Below are positions 43,601-63,471 of a stretch of DNA of 64,000 nt, piece by piece. Both the position numbers and the translations under genes were made by a program. Position 1 is the stretch's first letter; each line of letters begins with the position of its first letter. Origin of the DNA: Candidatus Spyradenecus sp. (lineage in GTDB: Bacteria > Verrucomicrobiota > Kiritimatiellia > RFP12 > DVOR01); NCBI GenBank assembly GCA_045613865.1, contig JAZLBT010000015.1:42913-106912 (forward strand). Reading direction: 5' to 3'. The notes beneath the pieces were generated by a model that did no database searches, was not told the DNA's origin, and worked only from the letters and a program-made list of their open reading frames with translations.

Positions 43601-46600
43601 TTGCCAGAATTAAGGATAGAATCCAAATCTTCAAAGCAATCCACACGAATGCTCAAAGCAGGCGTCGGATAAGCAGCGACCTTACCATTGATGGTCTGTT
43701 CAACATCCACCAAGGGGTTCGTCGAGTGAACACCACGTGTAGAGACGCGAGCTTCTGCGAAGTTCGACCAACCATCATGATCTGGGTCAGCATACATATC
43801 GAAGGAATCAACAGAAGGATTCGAAGACTTGAATGTCGCTTCCCAATGATCTTCCATGAAGTCTGCATCGGAGTAGAGCAAGCCCATTACTGGCGCACCA
43901 CGACGATAATAGAGCGGCACATGGAAGTCAGGAATATCATTACCAGCCGTCGAGTAGAGACCCGGATTGGAGTTTGCAAGATATTCTGCATAGTTCGTCA
44001 AGAAGTCACCGTCATTATCATAGTACGGACCATTCTTGCCAATCGGATCTTCATAATCGAGACCATAATATGTTTCCCACCAGTCAGGCATCTTATCGCC
44101 ATCGGTGTCGCGCGTTGCACCCTTACGAACTTCGGTTTCCAAGATTTGACCACCAACAGAAAGCTGGATGTCATTCATCTTATCACCCGTGTCAACTCCA
44201 TCCTTATTATGGAGGAACCATTCCGGGGTACCTTCTGTACCTTCAGTCGGAGCTTCCTTCTGATCAGGCGAAGAGAAGGAGCCTTCGGGTTCCCAACAAA
44301 TAGCAGAGTACTTCGTGAAGGCATCGCCATAAACCATAAGGTCTGTATCACGAATCACGGTGAAAGGTTCTTGTACCGTCTGCTTATCCTGATCGTAGGT
44401 CGGGAAGATCTCATAACGATAAGCATAGGGGTTAGCATTCACCTTCAAAAATACCGTTGCGTCAACCGTGTCTCCAGCCTTGTTCTTACGCCAGAAGCAA
44501 GTATCCCACATACGATATTGACCGAGTTCCGGCAATGCCGACATCTTCGGATTAATCGGTTCAAGGACCGAGGTCTCCATCTTGTGAAGACGAGGATTAC
44601 CTTCCTTGTCAAGCACCTCAATATCGAAGATTGGCAAACGAGAAACCAAGTTAATTGCCTTCGGCACATATTCATAGAACTTCTTCGTTGTCGTTGTTGC
44701 GATAGGCTTACCCGTTGTAGGATTATAAACCTTATCACCAAACGCATCAACCATCGGAACACGAGCAGTACGTTCTTCGCCATACTTCGTAGACTTCAAG
44801 TAGTCAGGCGTGTTGATGTCATAATACGAGCAGAAGAGATCTGTTGCTTGAGGCTTTTCATCACCTACGTAAGAGCTACGACGATAGGTGAAGGAACCAG
44901 GAATAGTTTCATCACCAATCAACTTCTGACCAGGATAGACTTCATAGACGTTATCTGCGTCTTCTTCCGTTGAAGAAGGAAGATTGTTGAAGGTGTAAAC
45001 CGCAACAGGATAGGTTGTAAGCGTATTCTCATAAATACCTTCACCGTCCTCATGCAAGTATTCTTCAACATCACCATTATTCAAACGATCAATCATCGAG
45101 GTCAAACGATAGGTGAGAAGTTCGTCCTTCGTCAATGTACGCTTGCTATCCTGAGCAATTTCAGTCTCAGTGCGGGCGCCATTCCAAATGCGAACTTCAT
45201 CCATGTAGCCCTTATAGCACTTGGTGAAGACTTCGCCAAAGGTATTGATACCAACAACGTTAGCCTCTTCTTCCTTAGACAAATAGTCAGAGGTATCAGC
45301 AATCCAGTTGTTCGTAGGTGTTGCACCCAAGATAAACGGTGCTTGATAGACATTGTAATATCTCCAATCACCATCATAAGAGTTAACAACCACACCAGTA
45401 GCCGGCAAGAGCGAGCTCAAAACGCTATTCGTCTCTTTACCATTGACATAAATTCGCAACGAGTTGCCATCATACGTTGCAGCAACGTGCGTCCATTCCG
45501 CATTTGGATCAATAGTGACAGAACCATTATCCTGCTTAACTTCCTTACCAATTGGCGTCTTCGAAACGGCGCGAGCCGACATTGCAGGCACGCTTGTTCC
45601 GCCATCAACCGAGCCACCAGTTGCAGTGAAGCAGGCATAAGGATAAAGCTTGTCACCCTTCACTTCCAAACCAAGAATGAAGTTGTGACGCAAGTGTTGC
45701 GTAGAGAGGCTATTCGTCGAGAACGACCACGGACGATCCACGAGAACAACATCAGTTTCATTCTGAACATCATCGGGGAGAATCCAGCATTCCACCGTAA
45801 AGCGACGAAGTGCCGTCGGACCAAAGTCAATCAAGGCCGGCGTTTGCATCGCGCCTTCGCCACCAAAGTAAGCGGCAAAGTTACGGGTCGGCGAGAAGGG
45901 ATCTTGAGGATCACCATTGTAATATGCATAAGGCGTAGAAACTTCTGTGCCATCTGCAATACCATCGCCATCGGTATCAAAACCTTCGTTCACTTCAAAC
46001 GGATAGAAGGGCATATCCTCAACGGCTTGACGAGAAGCGTCAGGATACTTCACAATAAATCCAGGATAGGACGTAAAGTATTCCTTCACATTGAGACCAT
46101 TTTCATCGGTCAATCCAGCAAGATTGTTACCATAGAAACGGAGCGTGAAAGAGTTCATATTGCTTGGATCTGTCATCCACAACGGCGACGGGTCTGTGCC
46201 ATGGTGAACTGCAGCATCTTCCCCGTTCGGAGCTTCATCAGAGTTCACAAGACCATCACCATCCGGATCTGCAAACGGCACACCCGTAAACCAAGGATAC
46301 GAGTAATAATCAAAGCCCGTTGCCTGCGTTGCAAAGTCACCAATGATGGCATTCTTCATCACAGGATTATAGGTAGCAGAGATATCCGTCTTCTTATAGT
46401 TACTAGCCAAATAAGCAGCTTGCAACATATCAATATGACGACCCGTAGCATTGTCCTTTACCTCTTCGCGGTAATCACCCAAAAGCGGGTTAAGGCCGTG
46501 GACAATTTCCCAATAGTCATCCATGCCATCCAAATCCGAATCCGAGGAAATCGGGCTTGTCGCAAAGAGCGGAACCTTGGAACGTTTAGCATCATTATTC

Positions 46601-49600
46601 GTTGTCGAGATTGTCGGGAAGGTGAGGAATTCTTCCTTGATCTGAAGCATATCACCCAAGCGGTTAGCAGAATTCTCTAAATAACCCGGCTTGATATAAC
46701 CAAGAGGACCAAAGTAAAGATTTCCATCTTCACGCCAAAGGCCACCATTGTAACCACGATAAGCCATCCGGACTTGAGCCTGCAAGAGCGGACACGTCGT
46801 CTCTGCAATGGTTGTTGCATAGTTGCCTGCACCACCATTACCAACACGTGCAACCGTCGGTGCATCAGGTTCTGTACCCGTCTGCTCCTTCACCCATGCA
46901 CGAATGTTATCAACCGAGCGATACGTATCTTCAGCACGCTTGAGTGCGTCCTTGTACTTCGCAACAATCTGATCACGACGTGCAGCCCAAATCTTTTGGC
47001 CTTCTTCAAAGGTCTTGATAAAGGCATAACCATTCACCTTTTGATCAATTGCCTTAAGGCTTGTGATCATGTCATTGTCATCGCTAAAGAATTCATCGAC
47101 CTTATGAATTGCCGTTACAGCCATCCAATAATCCTCATCCGAAGGATCAATAAAGGCCAAACGGTCAATTGCAGCCAAATACGTTGCAGTTTCCTTAACC
47201 TTCGTTGCATACTCCATCATGACACTATCATGAGAGACGCCAGGAATTGTTGTAATATCCACAGGATTACGTTCTGCAGAGCCCTGCGTCAAGAGACCCT
47301 TGCGAGCATCAATTTGCGACTCCGTGGGAAGCGCAATCGTACGAGCAAAGAGATAATTCACCAAACGCAATGCAGCATCTTCTTCACCATCTGCAGATGC
47401 ACGTGCAACCTTAATCGGATTGACTTCTGTATCCATCACATAATCCAAAGAGATCATCATGTCTGGATTCATCAAATCTTCATAAACGTTATAAGTGTCA
47501 GGGAAGGACTTCCAAATTACACCATACGTCCGCTTACCATCCATATCGATTTCAGAGACCCACTGTGCAACACCCTTCGCATTATCAAGCGACTTCGTGT
47601 AAAGACGAGAGACACTCGGAGAAAGGTCATAGCGGAAGTGACGGAAGGCACTTGTCATGTATTCCTGATAGTTCGTAAGACCATCATGATCAACGTCAAT
47701 ATCAACATCACCTTCATAGGTCGGGTCGATATTTTCAGGAATAGCAACCACTTCTGTCTCTGCTTCAGGGTCTTCACCCTCTACATTTTCTTCGTCTTCA
47801 GTAGTATCTTCTGCAACCTGCGGTGCGGTACCCCAGTAGAATTCATAACCATCCGACATACCATCACAGTCGGTATCCATTGAGCAGGGGTTCAAACCGC
47901 GACCTTCCCAGATCGATTTACGTGTACCATCTGCCGTGTAGATAAAGGTTGCCGAACCTTCCTGACCATCTTCAATACCATCAAAGTCGGTATCACTATT
48001 ATTCGGATCGGTCGGATAAAGTTTGTTCGTCCAACCAGGATTCGACAATCCACCGAGATCAGGATAGGAGTAAACCGATGCCTGACAAATAAACTCATCC
48101 TTTGTTGTAAGACCGTCTTCGTCAGTATCTTGTTCTCGTGCAGTTGCTGCAGGACCCGTAGGATCAAGATCCACATAGAGCGACCAACCATCTGGGATGC
48201 CATCGCCATTCGTATCCATGCTAACAGGAGACAACTGATTTACGAGCGGAAGAAGACGTGCGGTATTGTATTCTTCCATATTCGTGAAGGCGGTTGTATT
48301 TTCCGAGGTGTATTGGAAACGTGCATCACCAATCATGCCGCCCGATGCGGAAACAGCCCATGCTGTATACGGCGAGAAGCCAACCGTCGTGTAGACGTCA
48401 TGGTGCTTCAAGATGACCGCTTCGTTCGTTTCCATCTGATAGGACTTATCCGTCACAATGTTGGTGAGATTAATCTTTTCAGTCTCATCATCCAAATCAT
48501 CCCATGCAAAGGTTGTCTTGGAGAAACGTTCCAACGTTACAACTTCACCCTCTTCCAACGGATTTGCTGTGCCGTTCGCGGGCAAGGTGAAACGAATTTC
48601 CTTCGTTGCAGCATCATAGTAAGCACAGCACTTCACGAGCTGAATCGGCATACCATCTGCATCATACGTATTCACATAATAACGTGCATCTGCGGGAGCT
48701 GCCGTACCATTGAATTCCACTTCATAGAGATCGTGCACCACGCCAAACTTCTTCACTTCCAAACGTGCATAGAAGTCATTATCAGGGTTTTCATTTGCAT
48801 CGTCAAGGAAGGGATTCACGTAAGGAATACCATTATCATCGGCACCCCAGCCAGCTTCCCAACCATCGGGCATCCAGTCATTATCCGTATCGCAGTCGAG
48901 CGGATTGGTACCCAATGCAAGTTCTTCAATCGTGTTGTAACCGTCATTATCAGGGTCACCAGCAATACCACCATAGATATCGTTAGCTGTGATAACATCC
49001 CAGTAATTACCCATTGCAGACTTGTGGTTCGGGCGTGCATTTGCAGCAGGCGAACCAACTTCTGCATCAGGATTATAATCATTACGCAAACGACGACCCA
49101 TCACAAAACGGTTCGGCATGCCAAAGTGATTACCAACACCACCACGACGCTTGCCATTCATATTGATCTTAGCAACACTGGTTGTATCCATCGACTCAAG
49201 GTCACGAATATCGATTGCCGGCCAAATTGAAGTATTGATTTGCGTATAAGTTACGTCATCAGAGGTATCTTCAACCGTTTCCTTCTCATCCGTCCACTGG
49301 AAGGCGGAAGCAAAACGCATACGCGATGCATAGTACCAGAAGTAGTACTTCACACCATTAACGATATCACCACCATTGGTTTCACCGCCGAAACGATCCA
49401 ACCAACACGTCTGAAGCGGATCCCACGCATTTGTAAAGTACTCATCAAGGACAATACCCGCGGGCACCAACCAGTCATGGAAGGCAAACATTTCTGTTGT
49501 TGCATATGTCTTCGTGTCAACCTTCACCGTTGCATCTGCACCATTTTCGTCTACATATTCTTGCGTGTAAACAGGAGCGAGATACATCTTCTGCTTATAA

Positions 49601-52600
49601 GCCTTGATGTCAGCCGTCGTCTTGGTGCAATAGAGCAAACCATTGTCACCAATTTCGAAGACAAAGTCTGTCGAAGCAGGTTCCATGTCCGTAACAAGCT
49701 GAAGGATAACATCCTTTACAGTGATGCCCGTAGCCTTAATGAGTGCATCCATCTGCTCTGCGTAATCCTCTGCGGTCTTATCAAGCGCTTCAATATCTGC
49801 CATCGAGAGGGCGGCGAGCTTGCCTTCGCCAACCTTAATCGGCGTGGCGGTCGAATGCATCTCAACCTGATCATTGATACCAATGTAATTAGGTTGTGCA
49901 AGTTCGTAGCAAAGGAAACGTTCACCTTGAGGAATCGTTTCGTAAATTACAGCATCCTTTACCGTCGGAGCATCTGGATCAAAGAGCGGAATCCATGCAC
50001 GCTTTGCATTGCCCGCTTCATCTACCATCGGAATATGAACCATTGTATCAACAGTCTTTTCCTCTGCCGATGGAGTCGCTGAGTCAAACGATGTCGTCAA
50101 GAAAACCTGACACATATTGGGAATTTTTATTTCCTCAATTGCAACAGTCGTAACCAAATTGCCTTCGCTATCTGTCATCTGTGCATAGGTATCAACCGGC
50201 TTTTTCTTCGTTGTGACAGGGTCTGTGGTGCTGTCAGTGACATACTCAATCTCAACTGTTCCCGTCTTCACCCAAACAGGATAAGACTCGCCCGCCTTCA
50301 CGGTCTTCGATGTTTCTGTTTCAGCAACACCATCCAAGTCAGGATCAAGCTGACGCATCATTGCTTCCGTCTTCACCGCGGAGATAAGCATCATCTTACC
50401 GCCTAATTCACGAATGTCGAGATGTTTAAGCGTACCTGCCTGCTTGGCATCATCCTTACCCGGCATTTCATCAGACGAGGTGAAAGGATAGACAAGATTT
50501 GCCCCCGTTGCTTCATCGTAAACAGGAATGAAGTGTCGAACCTTCCGCGTTGCCGTATAGAGACCCGTCTCTTCCGACACAGAGGTCTTATCAACAAAGG
50601 TCTCTTCTGCATTGTAAGCCCACGTAACCTTTTGGTTACCATGATAGTCTAGCGCATAATTGTAAAGGTCAACAATTTGTTCGTAGTCTACACTATCCTT
50701 ATCCGTACAAACGAGCACCATGTGACCTTCTGGGCGACCATGAAGATGATTCCATCCTAAGGGGAAACCACGAACCTTCGATTCGTCATTACCATCGCCA
50801 AGCACCCAACGCCAACCAGCCTCATGCCATTCCTGAGGAATATTCCACCATTGGGGTTCATCTGGATTATTGATGTGTTTGCTTACGAAATCTGTTTTTT
50901 CTTCATTGAGATAGGGAATTTGATGACGTTCTGTACGAGCGACACGAATACCCGTGTCTTCCCAATCGGCAATCGTATCTTCAACCTTACGATAAACGAT
51001 TTCAGAGCCCATGTAAAGCTTGTGCTTTTCAAGCTGAGAAGGAACGAAAGAACCATCATTACGAAGCGTACCAGCATTAATAAAGGTTTCTTTATCATGT
51101 CCGTTAGGAGCAGTCTTTTCTGTATAAGCCCCACCAAAACTATCCAACTTTGCCTGCGTCACAGCAGGACGAAGCGCAACAACCCATGCAGGAGCAGAGA
51201 GCCAATTACCATGACCATCACCAGCATTCAATGCATCATCACGACCACGAATACGCTGCTTATAGGTGAACTGTTCACCTGTAACCGAGCAAGGTCCTTG
51301 AGGATTATTACGCGTCCAATGAATGGGCAACGAAAGGTTAACCGTATCATTGGCACCAGCATTATCAAGCGTATTGTTTACAAAGTTAGCGGCATAAACA
51401 GTATCACCGCCATTCCAACCTGCGAAAGGAAGACGATCACCTTCAGCAACCGTTGCTGCAACATTGGTTTCGACAAGTTCACGACCATTGGTGAAGTTTG
51501 CAATCAACCAACCATCGGGAACGCCGTCCATATTGTAGTCGCCGAGATCAAAGAGACCATTACGATCGCTCGTCTCCATCGAGTAAGCGCGCAAAGCATC
51601 GCCTTCGTCATATTCAAGCGTAAAGATTGCAGAGAGCACAATATCTGCCCATGTTTCCGATTCCTTCGGATCAACTTCTGCATCACCAGGCGCAAACATA
51701 CGATTAATTTGCAAGGTAGGCGAATAGATCGACTGCAAGGGGTCGGTCGACTCAAGTGGAAGCAAGCCAATGTAATCTTCCGATGCTGCCCACTTGTAGA
51801 AGAAGGAGTCCTTCGTCGGATTTACACCGATAAAGGAGTCAAACTTCTTACCCGCATGGGTCTTCTTGTTTGTACCTGCAGAAAAAGGAATTGCAACAAC
51901 CGCTGCGGTTGTACCCGTACCACGACCTAAGGTTGCGGATGTTGCCGTGCGGGTAAAGGTCCACTTCGACTGGCCACCTTCAGCAACTGTACCATTCTTC
52001 GCAACGTCTTCAGCCCACGCAATGAAACCAGAAGCCGACATTGCACCATAGGTGTTATAAACATTAAACGTGAACTTCTGTGCAGAAGAGATATCAACAA
52101 GGCCCGAAGGACGATTTTCGGAAGCAACATAGGCACCCGACGAGTCATAGGCCGTCATGCTCCAGTTGTGTTGACCAGCTGCATCGTAGGAATAAGTAAA
52201 GGCAACTTGCGATTCATAGCCTTCGCGTTCAATGCGGCAAGCTCCACCCTTTGCGAAGGAACCGACGGCGTCGGCTTTTTCACCATAATACTTCTTTTCG
52301 AGTTCGCGAACCTTATCATTCCACTTGGCTTCGCCCATTTGCTGAATCATATCTTCATCATTTGCAATCAAACGATATTCACGAGCATCAGCGACAGCTT
52401 CATCGAAATTCATTTCAACAACGATATAATCGGTCTTTGCATCTGCGATGGAGAAGGCAAAGGGAATCGTTGCACCAACAGAAGAAGTTTGTGCTGCGGT
52501 TGCACCCGTCACAAACGGAGCACGGTTAGCAATTGTCGGCGCTGCAATCGGAGAGCAAATATCTGCATTGCCAGTGATACGACCCGTTGCGGTACCAGCG

Positions 52601-54675
52601 CGAACAGCAAAGAGCGGCATCTTGATGGCAACATCGGTAGCATCATAGGTACCAAGTTTATTATCCTTCTTATAAACGGGAGCATTGAGAAGCTTGCTTG
52701 CAAAATCGTTCAATGCAGCAACATAGAAAGACTTTGCCGTTTCACCAGGGGCAAAGGTCATCACAAGGCGCAAGGGATCCGTTGCAAGGTTACTTACACC
52801 CGAACCCGTCGACTGTACCTGAAGCATCGTCTTCAAGAGATCAACTACAGGCGTATAAATCGTCTCGATTATAGCATCATTCTCATCGCGGATCTCTTCC
52901 TTATAATAGTAGTCTTCCGTAATTTCCGTTGTGCCATTAGAGAAGACGGGGTGCACAACGAAGTAGCGTTTCGCCGTCGAAACGGACTCAACACTTGCAG
53001 TATACGTTGCAATCGAGAGCGCGGTCGTTGCGTCGCCCGCCATCGCAGGACGATATTCCTGCAAATAGTCACCTGTTTCGGCAACGCTAATGGTGATATT
53101 CTCAACCTTCGTCGAAGACATCACAACGATGTACATCGGCGTATCTTGATCGTTGCTAAGACCGGGGATATGAACACGATAGAGCGCCTGGCCCGACTTC
53201 GCATTCGTCTTTGCCGTGAACTTAATCGATTCCAAGTCACCCGTTGCATTATATAAAGGAACAACATACTTGTCAGGAGAGACATTCGCATTCGATTGAG
53301 AAATCTGCTCAACGATTGCATAGAGCGTACCTGCGCCACTCAAACGATCAATATTATTCTTATCGATTTCCACCGTTGCGGTAGAACCTGCAGGCACAGA
53401 AACGAAGACAACATTGCCATCGCCTTCTTTAAATGTTGCAGGCGTTGTGACATCGTCCGAGCCACCCTGAATAAAATCAGCCAAAAGGTCTGCATCTGCA
53501 AACGTTGCGGTATCCTTATTGGGAATGTCAAGCGTTGTTGCTGTATAGCCCGAAGTTGCCGTATTGTTCACAACAGGCGAATCCAACAAGTCAAATTCTG
53601 CAGCAGCATAAACGTGCGAGTAAGTGGCATTCGTTGAGGGCATACCATAGCAGATACGCACAGGAGCCGATGTAGTAACACCCTGCGGAATGCTTACATA
53701 AAACGTCTGTGCAACAAAAGGTGCAGTGGTGCTATGACCATCCACAGAGGCGGCATACTTGCTATAACCATCTGCATCCTTTGCAACAAGTGCGGTATTA
53801 TCTGCATCAGCACCTGCAATATACGATGTTGCGTCGCGGTAAACGCTAATCTTTGCAGGGATCAAATTGCCATTTGCATCCTCCACCCAGAGCTTGCAAC
53901 CTGCAGCAACCGAAGCAGACGTGAACGCAGCAGGAATTTGATCAACATAATCAGCTGGCATTGCCACAGTAACAGGCACAAGACCCTTGTAAAGCTTGCC
54001 GGCATCGCCCACGGTAATTGCGAAGCCGTTCACTGCACAAGAAGCACCCGCTGTCACAGAAGAGCCGTCAAACGCATCCCTGTCAAGCGAGAGCTGTGTC
54101 ATTGTTGTGCCCGTAGAGGCACGTTCCTGTACCGACAACTTAATATTTTCAACCGTGCCGGACAAACGTAACGAACCATCCGCATTGCGTGCAAGGTCAA
54201 TATCGTCAACCATATCACCCGGACGCACCACATAAGCGAAGCGAAGCGTACCAGCAGCAGTCGAATCCACATAGTAAGCAACAGCCGAAGACGTCTGAGC
54301 GGGCACATCAACGTCTGCCTTGTAGCCCTGAGGATTACCATCAACCGTTGCAACCGAAGAGAGACCCTTCAATGGAATGTTCAACAACAATGCGGGGCGT
54401 GTACCAGCCTTTGCCGTATCGGCATGTTCATAGCTCGCCTTACCTAACGTTGTCGTCACTGTTGTGCTCGTTACTGTCGACTTCAACTTCACATCGAAGT
54501 AAACAATATCGCCAACAGCAAGGGTTGTCGCATCTGGACCACCACTATTACTCTCAGCGAACGAACGAGACACGCTCTCTACAGTAAGATCCGCAGAACT
54601 TACTGCATATGCATTTGTGCTCCAAAATGCGGTTACCGCTACCGCAGAAGCAATCAACATGTGTTTCATTTTCAT
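40687..54675 (-). CDS. Giant secreted protein 2 (about 4,662 aa from the ATG at 54675). It has a scattered array of Ca-binding DxDxDG (thrombospondin-type-3-like) motifs and a LamG/ConA-like domain.
   Basis: Signal peptide MKMKHMLIASAVAVTAFWSTNAYA. At least 14 D.D.DG..(D/N)..E motifs (for example DTDNDWMPDGWE, DTDCDGMSDGYE, DTDGDGIADGTE, DVDVDGDKLADAWE) lie between residues ~1910 and 4470. A LamG-like jelly roll ending in YMDEVRIWNGARTETEIAQ spans residues ~2960-3190, about nt 45120..45810. The ORF track starts at a GTG at 54687; the ATG at 54675 has GGAG 11 nt upstream. Confidence 0.85.
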   Translation of the reverse strand: MKMKHMLIASAVAVTAFWSTNAYAVSSADLTVESVSRSFAESNSGGPDATTLAVGDIVYFDVKLKSTVTSTTVTTTLGKASYEHADTAKAGTRPALLLNIPLKGLSSVATVDGNPQGYKADVDVPAQTSSAVAYYVDSTAAGTLRFAYVVRPGDMVDDIDLARNADGSLRLSGTVENIKLSVQERASTGTTMTQLSLDRDAFDGSSVTAGASCAVNGFAITVGDAGKLYKGLVPVTVAMPADYVDQIPAAFTSASVAAGCKLWVEDANGNLIPAKISVYRDATSYIAGADADNTALVAKDADGYSKYAASVDGHSTTAPFVAQTFYVSIPQGVTTSAPVRICYGMPSTNATYSHVYAAAEFDLLDSPVVNNTATSGYTATTLDIPNKDTATFADADLLADFIQGGSDDVTTPATFKEGDGNVVFVSVPAGSTATVEIDKNNIDRLSGAGTLYAIVEQISQSNANVSPDKYVVPLYNATGDLESIKFTAKTNAKSGQALYRVHIPGLSNDQDTPMYIVVMSSTKVENITISVAETGDYLQEYRPAMAGDATTALSIATYTASVESVSTAKRYFVVHPVFSNGTTEITEDYYYKEEIRDENDAIIETIYTPVVDLLKTMLQVQSTGSGVSNLATDPLRLVMTFAPGETAKSFYVAALNDFASKLLNAPVYKKDNKLGTYDATDVAIKMPLFAVRAGTATGRITGNADICSPIAAPTIANRAPFVTGATAAQTSSVGATIPFAFSIADAKTDYIVVEMNFDEAVADAREYRLIANDEDMIQQMGEAKWNDKVRELEKKYYGEKADAVGSFAKGGACRIEREGYESQVAFTYSYDAAGQHNWSMTAYDSSGAYVASENRPSGLVDISSAQKFTFNVYNTYGAMSASGFIAWAEDVAKNGTVAEGGQSKWTFTRTATSATLGRGTGTTAAVVAIPFSAGTNKKTHAGKKFDSFIGVNPTKDSFFYKWAASEDYIGLLPLESTDPLQSIYSPTLQINRMFAPGDAEVDPKESETWADIVLSAIFTLEYDEGDALRAYSMETSDRNGLFDLGDYNMDGVPDGWLIANFTNGRELVETNVAATVAEGDRLPFAGWNGGDTVYAANFVNNTLDNAGANDTVNLSLPIHWTRNNPQGPCSVTGEQFTYKQRIRGRDDALNAGDGHGNWLSAPAWVVALRPAVTQAKLDSFGGAYTEKTAPNGHDKETFINAGTLRNDGSFVPSQLEKHKLYMGSEIVYRKVEDTIADWEDTGIRVARTERHQIPYLNEEKTDFVSKHINNPDEPQWWNIPQEWHEAGWRWVLGDGNDESKVRGFPLGWNHLHGRPEGHMVLVCTDKDSVDYEQIVDLYNYALDYHGNQKVTWAYNAEETFVDKTSVSEETGLYTATRKVRHFIPVYDEATGANLVYPFTSSDEMPGKDDAKQAGTLKHLDIRELGGKMMLISAVKTEAMMRQLDPDLDGVAETETSKTVKAGESYPVWVKTGTVEIEYVTDSTTDPVTTKKKPVDTYAQMTDSEGNLVTTVAIEEIKIPNMCQVFLTTSFDSATPSAEEKTVDTMVHIPMVDEAGNAKRAWIPLFDPDAPTVKDAVIYETIPQGERFLCYELAQPNYIGINDQVEMHSTATPIKVGEGKLAALSMADIEALDKTAEDYAEQMDALIKATGITVKDVILQLVTDMEPASTDFVFEIGDNGLLYCTKTTADIKAYKQKMYLAPVYTQEYVDENGADATVKVDTKTYATTEMFAFHDWLVPAGIVLDEYFTNAWDPLQTCWLDRFGGETNGGDIVNGVKYYFWYYASRMRFASAFQWTDEKETVEDTSDDVTYTQINTSIWPAIDIRDLESMDTTSVAKINMNGKRRGGVGNHFGMPNRFVMGRRLRNDYNPDAEVGSPAANARPNHKSAMGNYWDVITANDIYGGIAGDPDNDGYNTIEELALGTNPLDCDTDNDWMPDGWEAGWGADDNGIPYVNPFLDDANENPDNDFYARLEVKKFGVVHDLYEVEFNGTAAPADARYYVNTYDADGMPIQLVKCCAYYDAATKEIRFTLPANGTANPLEEGEVVTLERFSKTTFAWDDLDDETEKINLTNIVTDKSYQMETNEAVILKHHDVYTTVGFSPYTAWAVSASGGMIGDARFQYTSENTTAFTNMEEYNTARLLPLVNQLSPVSMDTNGDGIPDGWSLYVDLDPTGPAATAREQDTDEDGLTTKDEFICQASVYSYPDLGGLSNPGWTNKLYPTDPNNSDTDFDGIEDGQEGSATFIYTADGTRKSIWEGRGLNPCSMDTDCDGMSDGYEFYWGTAPQVAEDTTEDEENVEGEDPEAETEVVAIPENIDPTYEGDVDIDVDHDGLTNYQEYMTSAFRHFRYDLSPSVSRLYTKSLDNAKGVAQWVSEIDMDGKRTYGVIWKSFPDTYNVYEDLMNPDMMISLDYVMDTEVNPIKVARASADGEEDAALRLVNYLFARTIALPTESQIDARKGLLTQGSAERNPVDITTIPGVSHDSVMMEYATKVKETATYLAAIDRLAFIDPSDEDYWMAVTAIHKVDEFFSDDNDMITSLKAIDQKVNGYAFIKTFEEGQKIWAARRDQIVAKYKDALKRAEDTYRSVDNIRAWVKEQTGTEPDAPTVARVGNGGAGNYATTIAETTCPLLQAQVRMAYRGYNGGLWREDGNLYFGPLGYIKPGYLENSANRLGDMLQIKEEFLTFPTISTTNNDAKRSKVPLFATSPISSDSDLDGMDDYWEIVHGLNPLLGDYREEVKDNATGRHIDMLQAAYLASNYKKTDISATYNPVMKNAIIGDFATQATGFDYYSYPWFTGVPFADPDGDGLVNSDEAPNGEDAAVHHGTDPSPLWMTDPSNMNSFTLRFYGNNLAGLTDENGLNVKEYFTSYPGFIVKYPDASRQAVEDMPFYPFEVNEGFDTDGDGIADGTEVSTPYAYYNGDPQDPFSPTRNFAAYFGGEGAMQTPALIDFGPTALRRFTVECWILPDDVQNETDVVLVDRPWSFSTNSLSTQHLRHNFILGLEVKGDKLYPYACFTATGGSVDGGTSVPAMSARAVSKTPIGKEVKQDNGSVTIDPNAEWTHVAATYDGNSLRIYVNGKETNSVLSSLLPATGVVVNSYDGDWRYYNVYQAPFILGATPTNNWIADTSDYLSKEEEANVVGINTFGEVFTKCYKGYMDEVRIWNGARTETEIAQDSKRTLTKDELLTYRLTSMIDRLNNGDVEEYLHEDGEGIYENTLTTYPVAVYTFNNLPSSTEEDADNVYEVYPGQKLIGDETIPGSFTYRRSSYVGDEKPQATDLFCSYYDINTPDYLKSTKYGEERTARVPMVDAFGDKVYNPTTGKPIATTTTKKFYEYVPKAINLVSRLPIFDIEVLDKEGNPRLHKMETSVLEPINPKMSALPELGQYRMWDTCFWRKNKAGDTVDATVFLKVNANPYAYRYEIFPTYDQDKQTVQEPFTVIRDTDLMVYGDAFTKYSAICWEPEGSFSSPDQKEAPTEGTEGTPEWFLHNKDGVDTGDKMNDIQLSVGGQILETEVRKGATRDTDGDKMPDWWETYYGLDYEDPIGKNGPYYDNDGDFLTNYAEYLANSNPGLYSTAGNDIPDFHVPLYYRRGAPVMGLLYSDADFMEDHWEATFKSSNPSVDSFDMYADPDHDGWSNFAEARVSTRGVHSTNPLVDVEQTINGKVAAYPTPALSIRVDCFEDLDSILNSGNNDEGENVAMSAKVVVHAFTVKGNMSAPDAIFVLPFGEAAEGDNAEGLTQIIGRMNYGTTTGYLEPGNIKAGSVEVKTSYYQEIGEDGTLNGYTDGEGVTIRDDGNGLLKGFFKTEVVSVDETTGEPVLDEDGKPVLKAVWSERAIGTINYITGEYSYTISEKDYITDELYNDEGKFVAYFKDIYLKAAYEMSPVESFPATYTFSQPLEGGHIREGKNNFFVFLDLNGNNMWNEGEPAGVPDQHDVDIGYDTINRELHVALTKNAPPGAVRVEMKTILDTFIAEKKAAEAMENNGTGDAEGEDDNNQAAEQEASLESKIKNPLTGDNLKWSNFLGEVGEEMTENFKIIFYDWETISNTIHSGATATLTRAYEQDYNTAKPYITEDEIFAANPTGLSVALSPNVTAMKYLVCYAPVAKLADPEYVARTYGIATAINNFGRFSVEQTHLRDPESANPNGGKIITNTDLAFEWASTTQLPSFDVKIVKTMDAAGIALAKEQTVFEKTAIRGVSAIARSNESSSKFYYRYEMPNAIGDLNSDATALFGNGSYKYVLTLHPYTGTPVELVGYFQVQLTDSRDLVDGIGTVETYKGSDGKYTAGAKDTTFNALNSYYVRANIRYNGVLNTDDDFSQGLVRIEAHYSASFNGTPVASTSDYLNYDGTNPALDNLNHTVIMEKDKTYVDGNEEIFHSTLIRAELRGLASDEPVYLVAYFDLNMNGKRDTWEPWGYLAKGATSSDNFYYDPMLVTPKRSGTSIDATFYIQDVDVDGDKLADAWEWIQSGRPSTLFADWCNTVVGGANAYTKAGVLWTEAGLTSLGAQVFGFNVLSVNNDGIVDVGIPAEAYQNTMSNFGSIMPAANWLELAAKGYTDYSVAIKSVVFDGNNVALQWSVEASKTEATGTTETITEEDITDIIAKTNAVYNFYGKETLSDEWTLINAIEVSLADGQVLKGASVKLNETAPKFFKVVLEVKTK

Positions 54676-54714
54676 ACCGTGTACCACTCCATTTCAAGGG
54701 GGTTTTTTATAAAA

Positions 54715-55371
54715 TTACTGAGCAACCGCCTGTGTTGCTGTTTGAGAATCCTGTTTTTGAGCATCTGCACGTGTCGGGAGCCCCGCTTCCTTCACCTGCG
54801 TCTCAACCGTCGAAAGCATTTGATCATAATCATTTTGAGCCGCATGCGTCTGCTGTTTAATACGCTGATAAACGCGACCCGTTGCCTTGCGGCTTGCCTC
54901 TTCTGCTTCAGCTACGGCCTTTAACAACGACTGATAATGTGCGTGCTGAGCAAGCTTTTCATTAATCAACGTCTGGCTCACCTTCATGCCACGAGCCTCG
55001 ACCGCAGCCGTCCAATTCTTAACCAATAATGCACGATAATCATCGGCAGCTTTTTTTGCAACAGCATAGGCATCGGCCGCCTGTGCTCGCTCATTTCCCA
55101 ACTGTTTCAAGTCAGCTTTGTAAGCCTCATCCTTAACACGCTCATCGCCCGTTGTCAAAGCGGGACGACCATTTGGATACTTCGCGTCTAAATCTGCGTA
55201 ATATTTTTCACGCGCGACAAGCCCATCTGCGCTCGTCGTCGTGGAGTCTTTTTGTGTCTCTGCCTCTGGAGGCGAATTATCGCCGCACCCCTGTAAAATC
55301 AGGCTTCCAAAGACAAATAGTAAACACGCGATGCCTCTCGACAGCACGTGTAGCTGACGCCTATAAAACAT
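54715..55371 (-). CDS. Lipoprotein with an Ala/Lys/Glu/Gln-rich, coiled-coil-like C-terminal half; first gene of the giant-2 operon
   Basis: Signal peptide + lipobox LILQGCGD. The downstream half is predicted helical (KADLKQLGNERAQAADAYAVAKKAADDYRALL...). There is a 39-nt gap to the giant gene start on the same strand. Confidence 0.6.
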   Translation of the reverse strand: MFYRRQLHVLSRGIACLLFVFGSLILQGCGDNSPPEAETQKDSTTTSADGLVAREKYYADLDAKYPNGRPALTTGDERVKDEAYKADLKQLGNERAQAADAYAVAKKAADDYRALLVKNWTAAVEARGMKVSQTLINEKLAQHAHYQSLLKAVAEAEEASRKATGRVYQRIKQQTHAAQNDYDQMLSTVETQVKEAGLPTRADAQKQDSQTATQAVAQ

Positions 55372-55750
55372 TTTTAGACCTCTTCTCTAATTCAATCATA
55401 CGGGAATAAACTATCACATCTACCCCAAATACGCAAGCATTCTTTTGAAGAAAGAGAAAAAATACACCCACCTTTTACTAACCTATAATAGAGAGCATTT
55501 TCCATCCCCTCCCACCCCCACTCTAACCACCTCTCAACACCCCTCAAAATTCCTCCTTTTTTCACTCGATTTTCGTTCTGGAAAATGATTTCCCTGCCCC
55601 CCATCCCATCATTCCCCAACAAAATTCCCAATCAAATTTCTCATTTAAAAGTGTCGCACACGTCTTCAATCTCCAATCGCCTACACCCCACGCAACGTTT
55701 CACCAACCTTTGTTATACCTGTTGATAAGCTGTGCATAACCCACGATTTT

Positions 55751-55838
55751 GAAACCGCACCTGTTTGAAGCTCAAACGTGCCGCAATTGAAGCTCAAACA
55801 GGTGCGGTTTAAGCTTCAAATAGCACCTGTTTCAAATT
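55751..55838. repeat. Four tandem 22-bp repeats of the CAAACAG family, with an embedded 17-bp perfect inverted repeat
   Basis: Units: GAAACCGCACCTGTTTGAAGCT / CAAACGTGCCGCAATTGAAGCT / CAAACAGGTGCGGTTTAAGCTT / CAAATAGCACCTGTTTCAAATT. AAACCGCACCTGTTTGA (55752-55768) is the exact reverse complement of TCAAACAGGTGCGGTTT (55794-55810). Confidence 0.8.
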
Positions 55839-56612
55839 GACATTCATAACCATTAAAATCACCCCTTTTCCTTCTTTAAATTACGCCCCCTATAATTCCA
55901 CTCTTTGCCCCCTACCCCTCCTAATCCTTCACACATCACTTCTATTTTATAACGCACGACAACACACCCACCTTAATCATCTGCAAAGAGAAAAATCGCA
56001 CTTTAACAAACCTCACGCAAATACAACAAGAACAATCGTCTTAAAATCTTTCTACTTTGACATCCACTTCGTTTAAACACCCCGTAATTTTATCAATTTA
56101 AAATAATTTCCTTCTTCGTAGTTAAATATCTCCCCCTCTCCATCGCTAGAAACAAAACTCAAATCGCATCCCATCACCATAAAGCGATTCCACCATTATC
56201 CAATACCATAAACAGACGTCTTCCCACGAATAAATGACATTCTCGAAAATTTCATCTCTTCAATATGCATTTACAATAACTTCTTTTGAACATTTTATGG
56301 TTGGCAATTTTAAGCTTAAAATCAGTACAATCTGTACTATCTGTGTAAAATTTAAATAGTACGATTTTTCGCCGGGGTCTTTTAGACCTATTTAGAAAAT
56401 TCTAGAAAATCGTACGATGGGCCGAAGAAATGAAATCGAAAAGGAACAGCTGCTTTAGACGGGCCTATCGACTAGCACAAAGTCAAACGCTCAAATCACA
56501 CAACCGCATAAAGCATGTATATCAACGTTTGAAATTCTTAACAACACGACAAATATACATCTATACTTCGACTACGTAGCAACTTCACAATCTTCCACGA
56601 GGCACATCTACT

Positions 56613-56646
56613 TTACAAAAAAACGCCCCACGAATGTGAGGCGTTT
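56613..56646 (-). terminator. Rho-independent terminator after fusA (minus strand)
   Basis: On the minus strand: AAACGCCUC ... GGGGCGUUU, a 9-bp stem with one G-U pair, followed by UUUUUUGUAAAG, 24 nt after the stop. Confidence 0.65.
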
Positions 56647-56669
56647 CTTCATTGTTCGTTTTCGAAGGA

Positions 56670-58775
56670 TTAGTCTTCGGAATCGGAGTAACCGTGGACC
56701 TTACCTGCCTTACGACGCTTTTCAACGATTTCGTCTTGGAGGTTTTTCGGTACGGGTTCGTAGTGGTCGAACACCATGGTGAAGGAGCCACGACCCTGAG
56801 TGAGGGTACGGATGGTGTTGGAGTAACCGAACATTTCACCGAGGGGAACGAAGCCGTGGACGAGACGTGCGCCACCGCGTTCTTCCATACCTTCAACACG
56901 ACCACGACGCTGAGAGAGCGAGCCGGTTGCTGCACCCATGTAATCTTCGGGAACAACGACCTCGACCTTCATGATCGGTTCGAGGAGCTGAGGCTGGCTC
57001 TTGAGGAAGACTTCCTTGAAGCACTGACGAGCAGCGGTCTGGAAGGCGAATTCCGAAGAGTCGACATCGTGGTAAGAACCGTAGAAGAGGGTTGCCTTGA
57101 GCGGGAGCACAGGATAGCCTGCGAGCGGGCCGGATTCCATTGCTGCACGAGTACCCTTTTCGACTGCGGGGATGTATTCGCCAGGGATAACACCGCCCTT
57201 GATGTCGTTGATGAATTCGAATTCCTTGCCATCTTCCTGCGGAGCGAACTTCATGCAGACATGGCCATACTGACCACGACCACCAGACTGCTTCTTGTGC
57301 TTGTATTCGCCTTCGCCTTCGACAGCGATGGATTCGCGGTAAGCAACTTCGGGGCGACCGACTTCGCATTCAACGTTGAATTCGCGCTTCAAGCGGTCAA
57401 CGATGATTTCGAGGTGAAGTTCACCCATACCCGAAATGATGGTTTCGGAGGTTTCCTGGTCGAATGCGACGGTGAAGGTGGGGTCTTCCTGAGCGAGGGT
57501 GTGGAGCGCGTTACCGAGCTTTTCATTGTCCTGGCGAGAGACGGGCTTCACTGCAATCGAGATAACCGGTGCGGGGAAGTCGATGGATTCGAGGTGAATC
57601 GGGTTTTCGATGTCGCAGAGGGTATCGCCGGTGCGGGTGTTGGGAAGGCCGATAACAGCAACGATGTCACCAGCATAAGCTTCTTCGAGCTTTTCTTGGT
57701 GGTTAGCGTGCATACGGAAGAGGCGGGAGATACGAGCCTTCTTGTTGATGGAAGAGTCGAGGATTTCTTCGCCAGCGCGGAGGGTACCGGAGTAAACGCG
57801 GGTGAAGATGATCTTACCCATGTTCTTATCAGCCATGATCTTGAATGCGAGAGCGGAGAGGGGCTCATCGTCCTTAGCATGACGAACGATGGTTTCATCT
57901 GCTTCGTCAACGACCGGCGGAATATCGAGCGGGCTGGGGAGGTAAGAAACGACTGCGTCGAGAAGGATCTGGATACCCTTGTTCTTAAATGCAGTACCGC
58001 AGAAAGCAGGCATGATCGAACGGGAGATACAACCCTTACGGATACCCTTGATGATTTCTTCCTTGGAGAGGGTGCCTTCTTCAAAGAACTTGTTCATGAG
58101 GTCTTCGTCTTGTTCAGCAGCAGCTTCGATCATTTCCTGACGCATTTCAGCGCACTTGTCAGCGAGTTCTGCGGGGATTTCAGAGTAGATCTGCTTAACA
58201 CCGTTGGAAGCCTTATCGAAGGTGACGAGGCGTTCTTCGAGCAAGTCAACAACGCCTTCGAAGGTTTCACCAGCGCCGAGAGGGCAAACCATCGGAACGG
58301 GGCGAGCCTTGAGCTGTTCGCGAGCCTGGTCCATCACGGAGAAGAAGTTTGCACCAACGCGGTCCATCTTGTTCACGAAGATGAGCTTCGGTACTTTGTA
58401 CTTTTCGGACTGACGCCACACCTGTTCGGACTGGGGCTGAACGCCACCAACTGCGCAGAACACTGCAACAGCGCCGTCGAGAACGCGGAGGGAGCGTTCC
58501 ACTTCAGCGGTGAAGTCCACGTGGCCGGGGGTGTCGATGAGGGAGATCATGTAGTCGCCCCACATAACAGCCGTTGCTGCGGAGGTAATCGTGATACCGC
58601 GTTCTTGTTCCTGGACCATCCAGTCCATCGTTGCGCCACCATCGTGCACTTCGCCGATCTTGTGGTTCTTACCAGAATAGAAAAGAATACGTTCAGACGT
58701 CGTGGTTTTACCAGCGTCAATGTGCGCCATAATACCGATGTTACGGACCTTGGCCAAGGGGATTTTGCGTGCCAT
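56670..58775 (-). CDS. fusA: Translation elongation factor G
   Basis: [36 protein letters not shown] and NKMDR, followed by the full five-domain EF-G architecture (701 aa). No rpsL/rpsG genes lie upstream and no tuf gene lies downstream. Confidence 0.95.
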
Positions 58776-61521: not shown

Positions 61522-61725
61522 AACATTCCTTTGCTTAACGTTTTCGGATGACAACGACATAAAAACAATAAAATACCACACCTCGCAAAAAAACGCAAGC
61601 CCTTCCCCTTCTTCCCCCAACAAAACCTTACAACAAAAATACTTATTTTCATCCTCCTCGAGACATTAAATTTGCTTTTCCATATAAATTGTGATAGAAT
61701 TAATACTAACAATGGGAGAGTATTG

Positions 61726-62508
61726 ATGAAAATATCCGTCTACATCATAACGAAAAATGAAGAAAAGCGTTTGCCATTAACCCTACAAGCCGTCGCAAAA
61801 GTCGCAGACGAAATCATCGTTGTTGACTCTGGATCGACCGACCGCACGGAAGAAATCGCAAAACGATACAACGCAAAGTTCATCTTCAACAAGTGGAAAA
61901 ACATCTCCGCCCAAAAACGCTTTGCAAGCTTCCAATGCGAAAACGAGTGGCTCCTTTCGCTTGACACAGATGAAGTTCTCTCCCCCGAACTCATCGAAGA
62001 AATCAACGCACTTAAGGCAAATCCAACGGCTGACGCCTATCAAATCTATATCCGCGATATGTATCCTGGAGACAAAAAGCCTAGACGTTTCGCAAAATCC
62101 TACAACCTCATCCGACTTTACAATAAAAACGCGGGAGAAATGCCAGACGATCTTACGCACGACCGTATCGTGATGAATGAAAATACAACCGTGCAACAAC
62201 TCAAAGCTCCCGTCCACCACTACTCCTATCTAAACATTGAACACACGGTTTACAAATTAAACAAATCCTCAACCGAACTTGTACAAACCGCGAACGCGAC
62301 AGGTCGCAGATACTCTTTATTCAGACTCTTCTTTGAATTTCCCTTCCAATTCTTCCGCTACTACTTCCTCAAACGCTACATATTTGCAGGCGTCTATGGA
62401 TTTATCCTCGCAACCATTTATGCCTTTGAGCGCTTCTTAAAAATTGCAAAATGTATCGAAAAACAAAGATACGAAAACTACATTGAGAACCAACAACCCA
62501 AAGATTAA
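61726..62508 (+). CDS. Family 2 glycosyltransferase (LPS core / KdtX-WaaE-like subgroup)
   Basis: MKISVYIITKNEEKRL and IIVVDSGSTDRTEEIA, with an LSLDTDE motif. The ATG at 61726 is preceded by GGGAGAG at -12. A hydrophobic C-terminal segment is typical of this subgroup. Confidence 0.7.
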   Translation: MKISVYIITKNEEKRLPLTLQAVAKVADEIIVVDSGSTDRTEEIAKRYNAKFIFNKWKNISAQKRFASFQCENEWLLSLDTDEVLSPELIEEINALKANPTADAYQIYIRDMYPGDKKPRRFAKSYNLIRLYNKNAGEMPDDLTHDRIVMNENTTVQQLKAPVHHYSYLNIEHTVYKLNKSSTELVQTANATGRRYSLFRLFFEFPFQFFRYYFLKRYIFAGVYGFILATIYAFERFLKIAKCIEKQRYENYIENQQPKD

Positions 62509-62520
62509 ATCTCGCCCCTT

Positions 62521-63471
62521 ATGACACCCAAAGTCTCCATTATCATCCCCGTCTACAACACAGAAGCGTATTTAGAACGCGCGCTTACGTCTGTCTTGTC
62601 GCAGACGTATCGTGACTTTGAAGCTATCTGTGTCAACGACGGCTCAACAGATAACAGCCTTGCAATCCTCGAATCCTACGCACAAAAAGACCCCCGTATT
62701 AAAGTGGTTAGCCAAGAAAACCAAGGCCTCTCAATGGCGCGTAACAACGGACTGAAAAACGCACGCGGAGAGTATATATACTTCCTTGATTCAGATGATG
62801 CTTTGCATCCCCAAATGCTCGAGATTACCATCTCAAAAATAACCGAACACCAAGCGGATTTACTTTGCTTTAGATTTAAAAAAAATACTAGCCTGACAAT
62901 CCAACCCACTCCCATTCCGTTAAATCAAATACCATTTAAAACCACACAAAAACCACTCGCCTTTACAAAAAAACATAAATTTAAAGTCACCTTTAATGCG
63001 TGGGATAAACTCTTTAAACGTACATTAATCGGTACAAGCACCTTCATCTCAGGAATCTATTTCGAAGACTATCCATTTACATACGAAATTTTGTCTAAAT
63101 CCCCCAAGACAGTCCTACTTAAAACAGCGCTTCACTACTATACTACGAATAACCAAGCTTCAATTATGCACTTAAAGCTAACCACAAGGCATTTCCATGA
63201 CTACTTGGTCGGATTGCGTCATGTCATCGACTGCTACAACAAACCCAACTTCGAGAAAGAACAAGCCTACCTCAAGCGCACCCTCGTCCCAACAATCTTA
63301 AAAACACAACTTCAAGGACTCCAACACGCAAACGTAGCGCCCGATTCCGAACTCTACCAAGCCTTCATCGCCGAGCTGAAAGAAATCCACGCTCGCGGCT
63401 GGCTCACTTGGCGCGGACACAAACTCTCCCGCTACCTACGCTACAAAAAGCTCCTCCGCCAAGGACGCTAA
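62521..63471 (+). CDS. Family 2 glycosyltransferase
   Basis: VSIIIPVYNTEAYLERALTSVLSQTY, ICVNDGSTDNSLAIL and YIYFLDSDDAL (DxD motif) form a canonical GT-A fold N-terminus. Confidence 0.8.
   Translation: MTPKVSIIIPVYNTEAYLERALTSVLSQTYRDFEAICVNDGSTDNSLAILESYAQKDPRIKVVSQENQGLSMARNNGLKNARGEYIYFLDSDDALHPQMLEITISKITEHQADLLCFRFKKNTSLTIQPTPIPLNQIPFKTTQKPLAFTKKHKFKVTFNAWDKLFKRTLIGTSTFISGIYFEDYPFTYEILSKSPKTVLLKTALHYYTTNNQASIMHLKLTTRHFHDYLVGLRHVIDCYNKPNFEKEQAYLKRTLVPTILKTQLQGLQHANVAPDSELYQAFIAELKEIHARGWLTWRGHKLSRYLRYKKLLRQGR

Follow-up and report, generated by a model that had tools for sequence, protein, structure and literature searches.

Long leaders with processive antitermination are well known in bacteria (ops/RfaH, JUMPstart, boxA, EAR and LoaP), and so are tandem operator arrays made of 17-bp palindromes, such as the lambdoid OR/OL and the four hipBA operators, as well as upstream activating sites that lie on one helical face. 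The locus described here has features in common with these systems. It lies in a 64-kb stretch of DNA (45% GC) from Candidatus Spyradenecus sp., of the Kiritimatiellia (contig JAZLBT010000015.1, positions 42,913 to 106,912), which is called the window below and in which all positions are counted from the first letter, and it contains an intergenic tract of about 0.8 kb with an extreme strand asymmetry, G being scarce on the plus strand. The genes around the tract are all on the minus strand, in the order fusA, spacer, lipoprotein gene, giant gene, and the last two form an operon of 14.7 kb. Two orthologous loci were available for comparison: L001, from the same species, and L002, whose lipoprotein is 56% identical and which has the same order of lipoprotein gene and giant gene. 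The reading that we favour, and to which we give about an even chance, is that the tract is a promoter-upstream spacer with an exaggerated form of a composition typical of the lineage, that its working parts are an array of palindromic sites embedded in it and the predicted operon promoter P1, and that the G-quadruplex (G4) motif within it is incidental. Nothing suggests a new kind of system.

The comparison with described systems shows likenesses as well as differences in each case. With the antitermination leaders, the locus shares a long non-coding region before a very long surface-protein operon; however, it has no ops or boxA and no leader family from Rfam, and the predicted promoter is located downstream of the tract. 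Like the lambdoid OR/OL and hipBA operators, the array is built from repeated 17-bp palindromes, here as 4-5 sites with a fixed 22-bp spacing upstream of promoters. In contrast to those operators, the arrays here are 60-430 bp upstream of predicted starts, do not overlap the promoter, and are found at several unrelated chromosomal operons without an adjacent cognate regulator gene. As for the GC skew associated with replication and transcription in bacteria, the skew has the same polarity as the bias of the whole window, and the bias is stronger in non-coding DNA, as usual, but it is about three times the background, arises through gain of G rather than through a C-to-T shift, and has sharp borders. 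Rho utilization (rut) sites are regions of about 80 nt of C-rich, G-poor, unstructured RNA, and RhoTermPredict defines them by a 78-nt window with C/G > 1 and a C every 11-13 nt (PMC6407284). The plus-strand RNA of the tract fits this description in composition, C spacing and low structure in all windows of its skewed blocks, a likeness that is based on sequence only; unlike rut sites, the tract is 10 times longer and is on the strand opposite to all neighbouring genes. The pilE G4 and its small RNA (sRNA) in Neisseria gonorrhoeae (PMC3547852, PMC13463697) likewise provide a case of a G4 upstream of the promoter of a fast-diverging surface protein. Here, in contrast, there are no silent donor copies in the window, and composition can account for the motif, which is set within a skewed tract of 0.8 kb.

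Composition and extent of the skewed tract

The initial annotation had described the region from 55440 to 56260 as about 8% G and about 30% C on the plus strand, and the measured composition (A 31.2%, C 31.3%, G 8.8%, T 28.7%) agrees with this. The region represents the strongest 820-nt skew in the window: the lowest GC skew, -0.58, was obtained at 55464, compared with an average of -0.11 (standard deviation 0.11) for non-overlapping windows. The content of G per 60-nt line, which had been given as 0-4, is indeed low, but it ranges from 0 to 7 and rises to 8-11 in the three central lines (55680-55859). The tract consists of two skewed blocks, A and B (Table 1), with about 130 nt of normal DNA between them (55700-55830: G 19%, C 25%). 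The borders of the blocks are sharp, with an abrupt upstream edge of the skew at about 56299, and individual 100-nt windows in the tract reach a GC skew of -0.9. The minus strand, correctly recognized at the outset as the sense strand of the downstream operon, is rich in G and poor in C in block B, and the skew is exceptional, as had been proposed. In 78-nt windows, the C/G ratio of the minus-strand RNA is at most 0.44 in block B and at most 0.40 in block A, and that of the plus-strand RNA is at least 2.25 throughout both blocks (median 4-5), with a median of 6 spaced-C chains (11-13 nt) per window. The two blocks are also the two longest minus-strand runs in the window with C/G < 0.5 (509 and 333 nt).

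The intergenic region as a whole spans 55372-56669 (1298 nt), with the fusA terminator as its upstream limit. It contains 17-30 stop codons in each frame of a six-frame translation and no credible open reading frame (ORF), consistent with the roughly 1.3 kb without an ORF noted initially. The sole sizeable intergenic ORF with a good Shine-Dalgarno sequence has a TTG start at about 55546, in the frame of ORF 55392-55631, and it was rejected, since a TGG-to-TAG change in strain L001 breaks it. Apart from the array, an internal-repeat search detected no duplication within the tract, and tandem repeats were low-scoring only. An invertible switch was also considered and rejected: the flanking inverted repeat I3 is just 71% complementary, and the island between the blocks is neutral in skew, not inverted. 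No homologs of the tract were found by blastn against phages and plasmids, by a metagenome scan with a conserved 22-mer, which matched just an unrelated iorA/iorB junction, or, beyond strain L001, in the compared related loci.

The predicted promoter P1

P1 is composed of a -35 element TTGCGT (55436-55431), 14 nt, and an extended -10 element TGaTAGTTT (55416-55408). It fits an extended -10 promoter of the sigma-70 type, with a TTG-type -35, a TGn abutting TAnnnT and a 17-nt spacer. In the alignment of the window, L001 and L002, both the -35 and the -10 of P1 are kept in L002 and the spacer between them is variable. The T/A-rich block directly upstream of the -35 is where the conservation with L002 starts and where the G-rich tract stops.

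The pattern TTGNNN-N13-15-TGnTAnnnT has 18 matches in the window, compared with 8.2 in shuffled sequences, and 8 of the 18 are directly upstream of transcription units (wzz, hemA, GT2, infA, fusA, rpoD, tRNA-Gly and the lipoprotein gene), with pattern starts, by position, at 11872, 14496, 20693, 39926, 55436, 58849, 61598 and 61672. The match at tRNA-Gly, where the -10 element ends 12 nt ahead of the mature tRNA, supports the pattern because the promoter of a tRNA has to adjoin the gene. At infA, a G-run is found directly upstream of the -35, and its position is retained in L097 and L100. P1 was chosen as the promoter of the operon because of its conservation in L002 and because the same layout is seen at seven other units; we infer that P1 is the active promoter of the operon, placed downstream of the skewed tract. 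A literature search on Kiritimatiellia promoters and on bacterial divergent transcription found no specific match.

A further promoter-like match lies in block B (56029-56000). This match is at the level of chance, because the pattern has no C and the strand is poor in C: about 0.2 such matches are expected by calculation in a tract of this composition, and 2 of the 10 substitutions in L001 fall within it.

The 22-bp-phased palindromic array

The unskewed island between the two blocks carries four palindromic sites that start at 55751, 55773, 55795 and 55817, with a spacing of exactly 22 bp, or two helical turns. The units are in mixed orientation with neighbours opposed, and because adjoining units point opposite ways, the array folds as a long hairpin (z -4.98 compared with shuffles). 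The same type of array is located upstream of folP (4206-4294, 5 direct units; array region 4206-4310) and upstream of tRNA-Gly (20820-20886, 4 units; array region 20820-20902), and the exact 22-bp spacing of the sites is found in all three of these intergenic regions of the window. The core TTCAAACAGGKS has 9 matches in 64 kb, compared with 1.5 expected, and 9 of the 9 are inside the three regions. In four relatives, three GTCGCCC units with exact 22-nt spacing are located 170-216 nt upstream of infA (L102, 5465-5530; L103, 2451-2516; L104, 2370-2435; L105, 2261-2326), and GTCGCCC is the reverse complement of the core of the folP-array unit. Arrays of this type thus recur in the lineage, in front of folP and tRNA-Gly here and of infA in relatives.

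The array is probably an operator or an upstream activating site for a dimeric DNA-binding protein that would occupy one face of the helix, and its putative role in protein binding is suggested by the arrangement of the sites. No regulator gene adjoins the array. The initial annotation had offered a platform for nucleoid proteins as one explanation of the region; the part of this idea that concerns protein binding fits the unskewed island with its recurrent 22-bp array, but not the skewed DNA itself.

Two minor observations concern the same DNA. Copies of the 7-bp sequence CATAACC (plus strand) form a direct repeat on either side of the array, at 55735-55741 and 55845-55851, 6-8 nt outside the outermost half-sites. 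Because this repeat resembles a target-site duplication, a tract that was already skewed may have received the array by insertion. In addition, a 14-codon ORF (MVMNVNLKQVLFEA) at 55809-55853 on the minus strand follows a good Shine-Dalgarno sequence (aaggggtga) and stops within the first array unit. L001 carries the same ORF unchanged; it is otherwise unsupported.

Skew upstream of other genes in the window and in relatives

At fourfold-degenerate sites, plus-strand genes have a sense-strand skew of -0.33 and minus-strand genes one of +0.08. For these two gene sets, the values would resolve into a replication-type strand contribution of about -0.20, counted on the plus strand, and one of about -0.13 that reflects a preference for C in the sense strand. 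In 2-kb bins from 8 to 64 kb, the plus-strand skew is negative in all but one. Regions upstream of minus-strand genes have a sense-strand skew of +0.15 to +0.46, compared with +0.62 here. The next-longest minus-strand tracts with C/G < 0.5 are 267 nt (upstream of infA), 234, 201 and 184 nt (upstream of tRNA-Gly), and a shorter tract of the same polarity is also located upstream of the giant-1 operon. At plus-strand genes in the window, the upstream effect is weak. Deamination was rejected as the sole cause of the skew in the tract, given that T is not raised and G is raised.

For comparison outside the window, relatives were found via their identical IF-1 protein. In relatives of 44-55% GC, the 200 nt upstream of infA are G-rich and C-poor, with a skew of +0.21 to +0.46, and there is often a G-run right before the infA -35; outside the coding region these sequences do not align. 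In relatives of 67% GC, the skew upstream of infA is absent. Judged from these sequences, tracts of the same polarity appear to be usual in those members of the lineage that have a lower GC content, the present tract being the longest and most extreme. The initial annotation had named, as grounds for refutation, a lack of transcription across the region, a lack of conservation in relatives, and similar skewed tracts upstream of many genes as a general feature of promoters in this genome. The last of these applies in part: shorter tracts of the same polarity occur in the window in front of infA, tRNA-Gly and the giant-1 operon, and in relatives in front of infA.

Elsewhere in the window, the two glycosyltransferase genes at 61723-63471 have fourfold GC skews of -0.55 and -0.57 on their own sense strand, and a G-poor stretch (62773-63107) lies within the coding sequence, unlike what is seen in the other plus-strand genes. 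These glycosyltransferase genes may be of foreign origin.

G-quadruplex motifs

The canonical motif proposed in the initial annotation is present on the minus strand at 55592-55617 (GGGG-aatgat-GGG-at-GGGGGG-ca-GGG), as detected both by a regular expression for four runs of at least three G with loops of 1-7 nt and by G4Hunter, and it is one of 3 such motifs on both strands of the 64 kb. The weaker motif proposed at 55502-55520 is a true cluster of G, but it has only three runs of at least three G plus a GG. When sequences of the same composition were shuffled, from 5% (mononucleotide) to 11% (first-order Markov) of them contained at least one canonical motif. Runs of at least three G are not enriched (21 observed compared with 17-21 expected), and runs of at least four G are modestly enriched (12 compared with 5.4-7.3). 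Chance does not account for a skew of this size, but the G4 motif taken alone is no anomaly; because shuffles of the tract's composition yield it in 5-11% of cases, it was read as a by-product of composition. No match to the promoter pattern was found beside the motif, and no search aimed at a pilE-type sRNA promoter was made. More generally, these results call for caution, since strongly skewed DNA yields G4 motifs through composition alone, and such motifs should not be taken as devices.

Tests at the RNA level

At the gathering threshold, Rfam models detected two tRNAs only in the whole window, neither of them in the tract. With E values up to 10, the best matches in 55200-56800 were of 12-23 bits, compared with gathering thresholds of 45-72, and all of them except MIR2933 (17 bits) are at the fusA terminator, outside the tract. 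The minus strand has no excess of structure over shuffles in 55372-55745 (z -0.66) or in 55840-56290 (z -1.10), and the plus-strand RNA is almost free of structure outside the array (-105.6 kcal/mol for 919 nt). GGA words of the CsrA type, the Shine-Dalgarno-like GGAGG, GGTGG and other G-rich words occur in the tract at the frequency expected from composition, and the possibility of a sponge RNA was rejected on this ground. Searches of the region for ops (GGCGGTAGnnT), boxA and the sigma-54 motif GG-N10-GC within 2-3 mismatches returned nothing save an ops-like string with 2 mismatches at 56508, outside the tract. No intrinsic terminator was predicted on the minus strand within the tract.

These results lend no support to two explanations that had been put forward for the region. 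For a structured 5' untranslated region (UTR), the blocks fold like shuffles and the best-supported predicted promoter is downstream of the tract. For an unannotated non-coding RNA, there is no Rfam match, conservation ends at the strain that is 98.7% identical, and the 309 nt compared in front of the 56%-identical ortholog lack the tract. The tract is non-coding, and most likely it is neither a leader RNA of the operon nor an RNA gene.

Conservation of the locus

L001 is 98.7% identical to the window over 798 nt of the intergenic region, and the protein identity is 91%. When identity was profiled in 100-nt steps, it was 95-100% in the intergenic region and in the first 200 nt of the lipoprotein gene, and fell to 79-88% in the rest of the lipoprotein gene and the start of the giant gene, with one 98% stretch at the junction (the ranges compared were 54715-55371 and 53600-54687 of the window and 798-2515 of L001). 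Because this profile shows a mosaic, the 98.7% identity was not taken as a sign of constraint. The surface-protein genes appear from this profile as a mosaic, fast-diverging block, and the intergenic identity as the baseline of the species. The mosaic points to allelic replacement or to diversifying selection on the surface proteins.

The sequence of the tract is conserved in strain L001 only, which is too close for an analysis of covariation. In L002, the comparison extends over 309 nt upstream, where its contig ends; the last approximately 100 nt resemble the window (83% identity), and the remainder is unrelated and unskewed (C 16%, G 21%).

On the other side of the tract, contigs with an identical or 89%-identical EF-G have wholly different genes downstream of fusA, and no skewed tract was found there. 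In relatives whose EF-G is 94% or 89% identical, the DNA at this place is unrelated, GC-rich or short, and unskewed. The junction downstream of fusA thus looks, in the sequences compared, like a rearrangement hot spot. The neighbours downstream of fusA in L083-L089 and L090-L094 encode PEP-CTERM proteins, dynamin-like GTPases, a SpoU methylase and an IS110 transposase. The homologs of EF-G with a named source are from Kiritimatiellia in every case, and a search of genome contigs with fusA gave distant matches, of at most 59% identity, among the matches listed.

Interpretation and alternatives

Read along the minus strand, the locus opens with the terminator of fusA and some 320 nt of DNA that has an ordinary composition and small palindromes. 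Block B (about 460 nt), the array and block A (about 310 nt) follow, and after them come the T/A-rich block, the predicted extended -10 promoter and a predicted UTR, about 30-35 nt long, that leads to the start codon. If the tract is a promoter-upstream spacer, the array and P1 would be its most likely working parts. The skew, which would have no sequence-specific function of its own, would result from the composition found upstream of promoters (a G-rich, C-poor sense strand) added to a replication-type strand bias, and the tract would be ordinary regulatory and spacer DNA.

Several results weigh against this reading. The background, about -0.2 from the strand and roughly 0.1-0.3 from the position upstream of a promoter, gives about -0.4, compared with the -0.56 to -0.62 seen. 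It also leaves the length of 820 nt unexplained, the other tracts being 180-270 nt long. The excess consists of a gain of G (31% compared with about 18-25% in other upstream regions), not of a shift from C to T. Block B lies beyond the array, a position at which the other examples in the window lack skewed DNA. Because higher-GC relatives (50-68% GC; L083-L094, L096, L099 and L101) have no upstream skew, the skew is not a habit of the whole family. Finally, P1 is itself a predicted promoter, and transcription may start at a more distal site; the comparison with L002 stops 309 nt upstream, and that genome may carry a tract further out.

The composition of the plus-strand RNA could instead be explained if the tract were a directional Rho insulator, in which divergent or antisense RNAs running in the plus direction, away from the array or from the region of the operon promoter, would be terminated, over 0.8 kb and whatever their start, before colliding with the convergent, highly expressed fusA. 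All 78-nt windows of both blocks have the C/G ratio and the C spacing that RhoTermPredict looks for, the plus-strand RNA is nearly unstructured outside the array, a plus-direction sigma-70-like match (9 of 12 positions) lies at the array edge (55831-55859), and other promoter-upstream tracts share the polarity. However, about 80-130 nt suffices for the loading of Rho, which leaves 820 nt unexplained, the effect is just weak at the plus-strand genes of the window, and the hairpin of the fusA terminator could already work bidirectionally, and we regard such an insulator as unlikely. The same asymmetry seen from the minus strand might mark an untranslated leader of 0.6-0.9 kb that starts at a distal promoter (56000-56300), in which the scarcity of C would block the loading of Rho on ribosome-free RNA so that polymerase reaches the 14.7-kb operon. 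The C/G ratio of at most 0.44 everywhere in the blocks, the two longest such runs in the window, would suit a leader of this kind, as would the abrupt onset of the skew at about 56299, a sense polarity typical of 5' UTRs, the promoter-pattern match at 56029-56000, an extended -10 at 56095, and the lack of a predicted minus-strand intrinsic terminator in the tract. Yet the distal match is at chance level and carries two of the ten strain substitutions, the well-supported P1 is downstream of the tract with L002 conservation beginning at its upstream block, the L002 operon has no such leader in the 309 nt compared, and ops, boxA or a known antitermination RNA were not found; such a leader is improbable in our estimate. 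In a more general form of the Rho argument, also one that we consider doubtful, the strand-specific depletion would be selected via Rho as a promoter-directionality device of the low-GC Kiritimatiellia lineage. Wrong-way transcripts would be substrates of Rho (C/G > 2) and sense RNA would be proof against it (C/G < 0.45), and at this locus the device would shield the convergent fusA or let an untranslated leader reach the 14.7-kb operon.

Two further explanations do not involve Rho. The tract could be a functionless compositional fossil, a remnant of foreign or rearranged DNA from the placement of the giant-gene operon beside fusA, unrelated to promoters. The neighbourhood downstream of fusA, which differs among contigs with identical or 89%-identical EF-G and is rearrangement-prone, would be in line with this, as would the fact that the tract has no homolog in any collection searched, but its polarity is the same as that of other promoter-upstream tracts of the genome and of relatives, the embedded array belongs to a family native to the genome, and we know of no class of mobile DNA with 6-8% G across hundreds of bases; a fossil is quite unlikely. 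Still less probable, indeed very improbable, is an initiator of recombination through a G4 or an R-loop, whose G-rich strand would diversify the adjoining surface-protein genes, as modelled on the Neisseria pilE G4 and immunoglobulin switch regions. Such an initiator would account for the canonical motif and the two G-run clusters on the minus strand, for the mosaic, fast-evolving locus between the two strains and for the drop in identity just downstream of the tract. The motif, however, is within the chance expectation for the composition, and the window contains no donor cassettes and no internal DNA repeats for the giant gene; 40687-55371 has no DNA similarity to the rest of the window and hence no silent donor copies there. 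Furthermore, the mosaic comes from a single strain comparison, the invariant infA and a tRNA carry similar upstream tracts, and the element at pilE consists of just one motif of 16 nt, which has an sRNA promoter of its own, and not of a 0.8-kb tract (PMC3547852).

Under the reading that we favour, a promoter-upstream spacer with array and P1 as its working parts, the value of the locus is descriptive. For an uncultured Kiritimatiellia lineage of the gut or rumen type, it provides a promoter consensus (TTGNNN-N14-TGnTAnnnT), a 22-bp-phased array and a promoter-upstream composition, all of which can be used to annotate transcription units in metagenome-assembled genomes. If, on the other hand, the polarity were selected through Rho, it would amount to a rule in which the direction of transcription is encoded in composition and long untranslated RNAs are protected, and bacteria would have an equivalent of the asymmetry in sequence by which promoter direction is set in eukaryotes.

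Table 1. Positions of features in and around the intergenic region, listed in minus-strand order (positions in the window)
Feature	Position	Strand	Remarks
fusA	58775-56670	-	EF-G domains
fusA intrinsic terminator	56617-56649	-	stem CGCCTCAC/GTGGGGCG, loop ATTC, 7-T run; inverted repeat I12
Distal intergenic DNA, ordinary composition	56300-56616	.	contains short palindromes
Palindromes in distal DNA	56356-56368 and 56406-56418		ATAGTACGATTTT / AAAATCGTACGAT
Palindromes in distal DNA	56307-56322; 56324-56338		ATTTTAAGCTTAAAAT; AGTACA..TGTACT
Skewed block B	55837-56299	.	55830-56260 plus strand G 6.3%, C 30.6%
Promoter-like match, candidate distal promoter	56000-56029	-	TTGTTG-N14-TGtTAAAGT; chance level
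G-run cluster, similar to that at 55502-55521	55890-55925	-	G4Hunter 1.84
Unskewed island	55748-55836	.	four 17-bp palindromic sites CAAAC-N7-GTTTG, at most 2 mismatches each
Skewed block A	55434-55747	.	between array and promoter; 55440-55700 plus strand G 7.7%, C 35.2%
Canonical G-quadruplex motif	55592-55617	-	GGGGAATGATGGGATGGGGGGCAGGG; regular expression; G4Hunter 2.2
G-run cluster	55502-55521	-	GGGGG-T-GGG-A-GGGG-AT-GG; three runs of at least three G plus GG; G4Hunter 2.12
T/A-rich block	55441-55462	-	ttttttctctttcttcaaaaga; directly upstream of -35, UP-element position
P1, predicted promoter of lipoprotein/giant-protein operon	55408-55436	-	conserved in L002; consensus match
Predicted 5' UTR	55372-55407	-	Shine-Dalgarno-like agaagagg; 3 of 36 positions differ from L002, final 19 nt identical
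Lipoprotein gene, 218 aa, first gene of operon	54715-55371	-	lipobox LQGC
Giant protein gene, 4666 aa	40687-54687	-	signal peptide, one Laminin_G_3 domain

Neighbouring genes and other observations

The lipoprotein belongs to no Pfam family and has 2 homologs only among the 5.8 billion proteins searched, and a search of genome contigs with it gave zero matches. For the giant protein, a homolog search with the N-terminal 600 aa was negative. The fusA gene is solitary and not part of a str operon.

In the distal part of the intergenic region, GTAC palindromes and the words ATAGTAC and GTACTAT are grouped at 56307-56418. They are also found at 3978, 4051, 4073 and 4130, in the folP intergenic region, and at 58788, just ahead of the fusA start, and they may represent a second regulatory motif. 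In one relative, a Cas12a (Cpf1)-Cas4-Cas1-Cas2 locus is located directly upstream of infA (L098, 1-4688).

Three small ORFs with lipoprotein signals were observed in stretches of the window that are otherwise counted as intergenic, at 3109-3462 (minus strand), 3452-3787 (minus strand) and 40074-40523 (plus strand), with the lipoboxes LFTGC, GFTGC and LIGC, respectively. The sigma-70 ORF at 37458-39971 (837 aa) has about 300 residues ahead of region 1.1, and the promoter-pattern match at 39926-39898 falls within its first 25 codons. Because of the position of this match, the true start of the sigma-70 gene is probably further downstream than the start of the long ORF.

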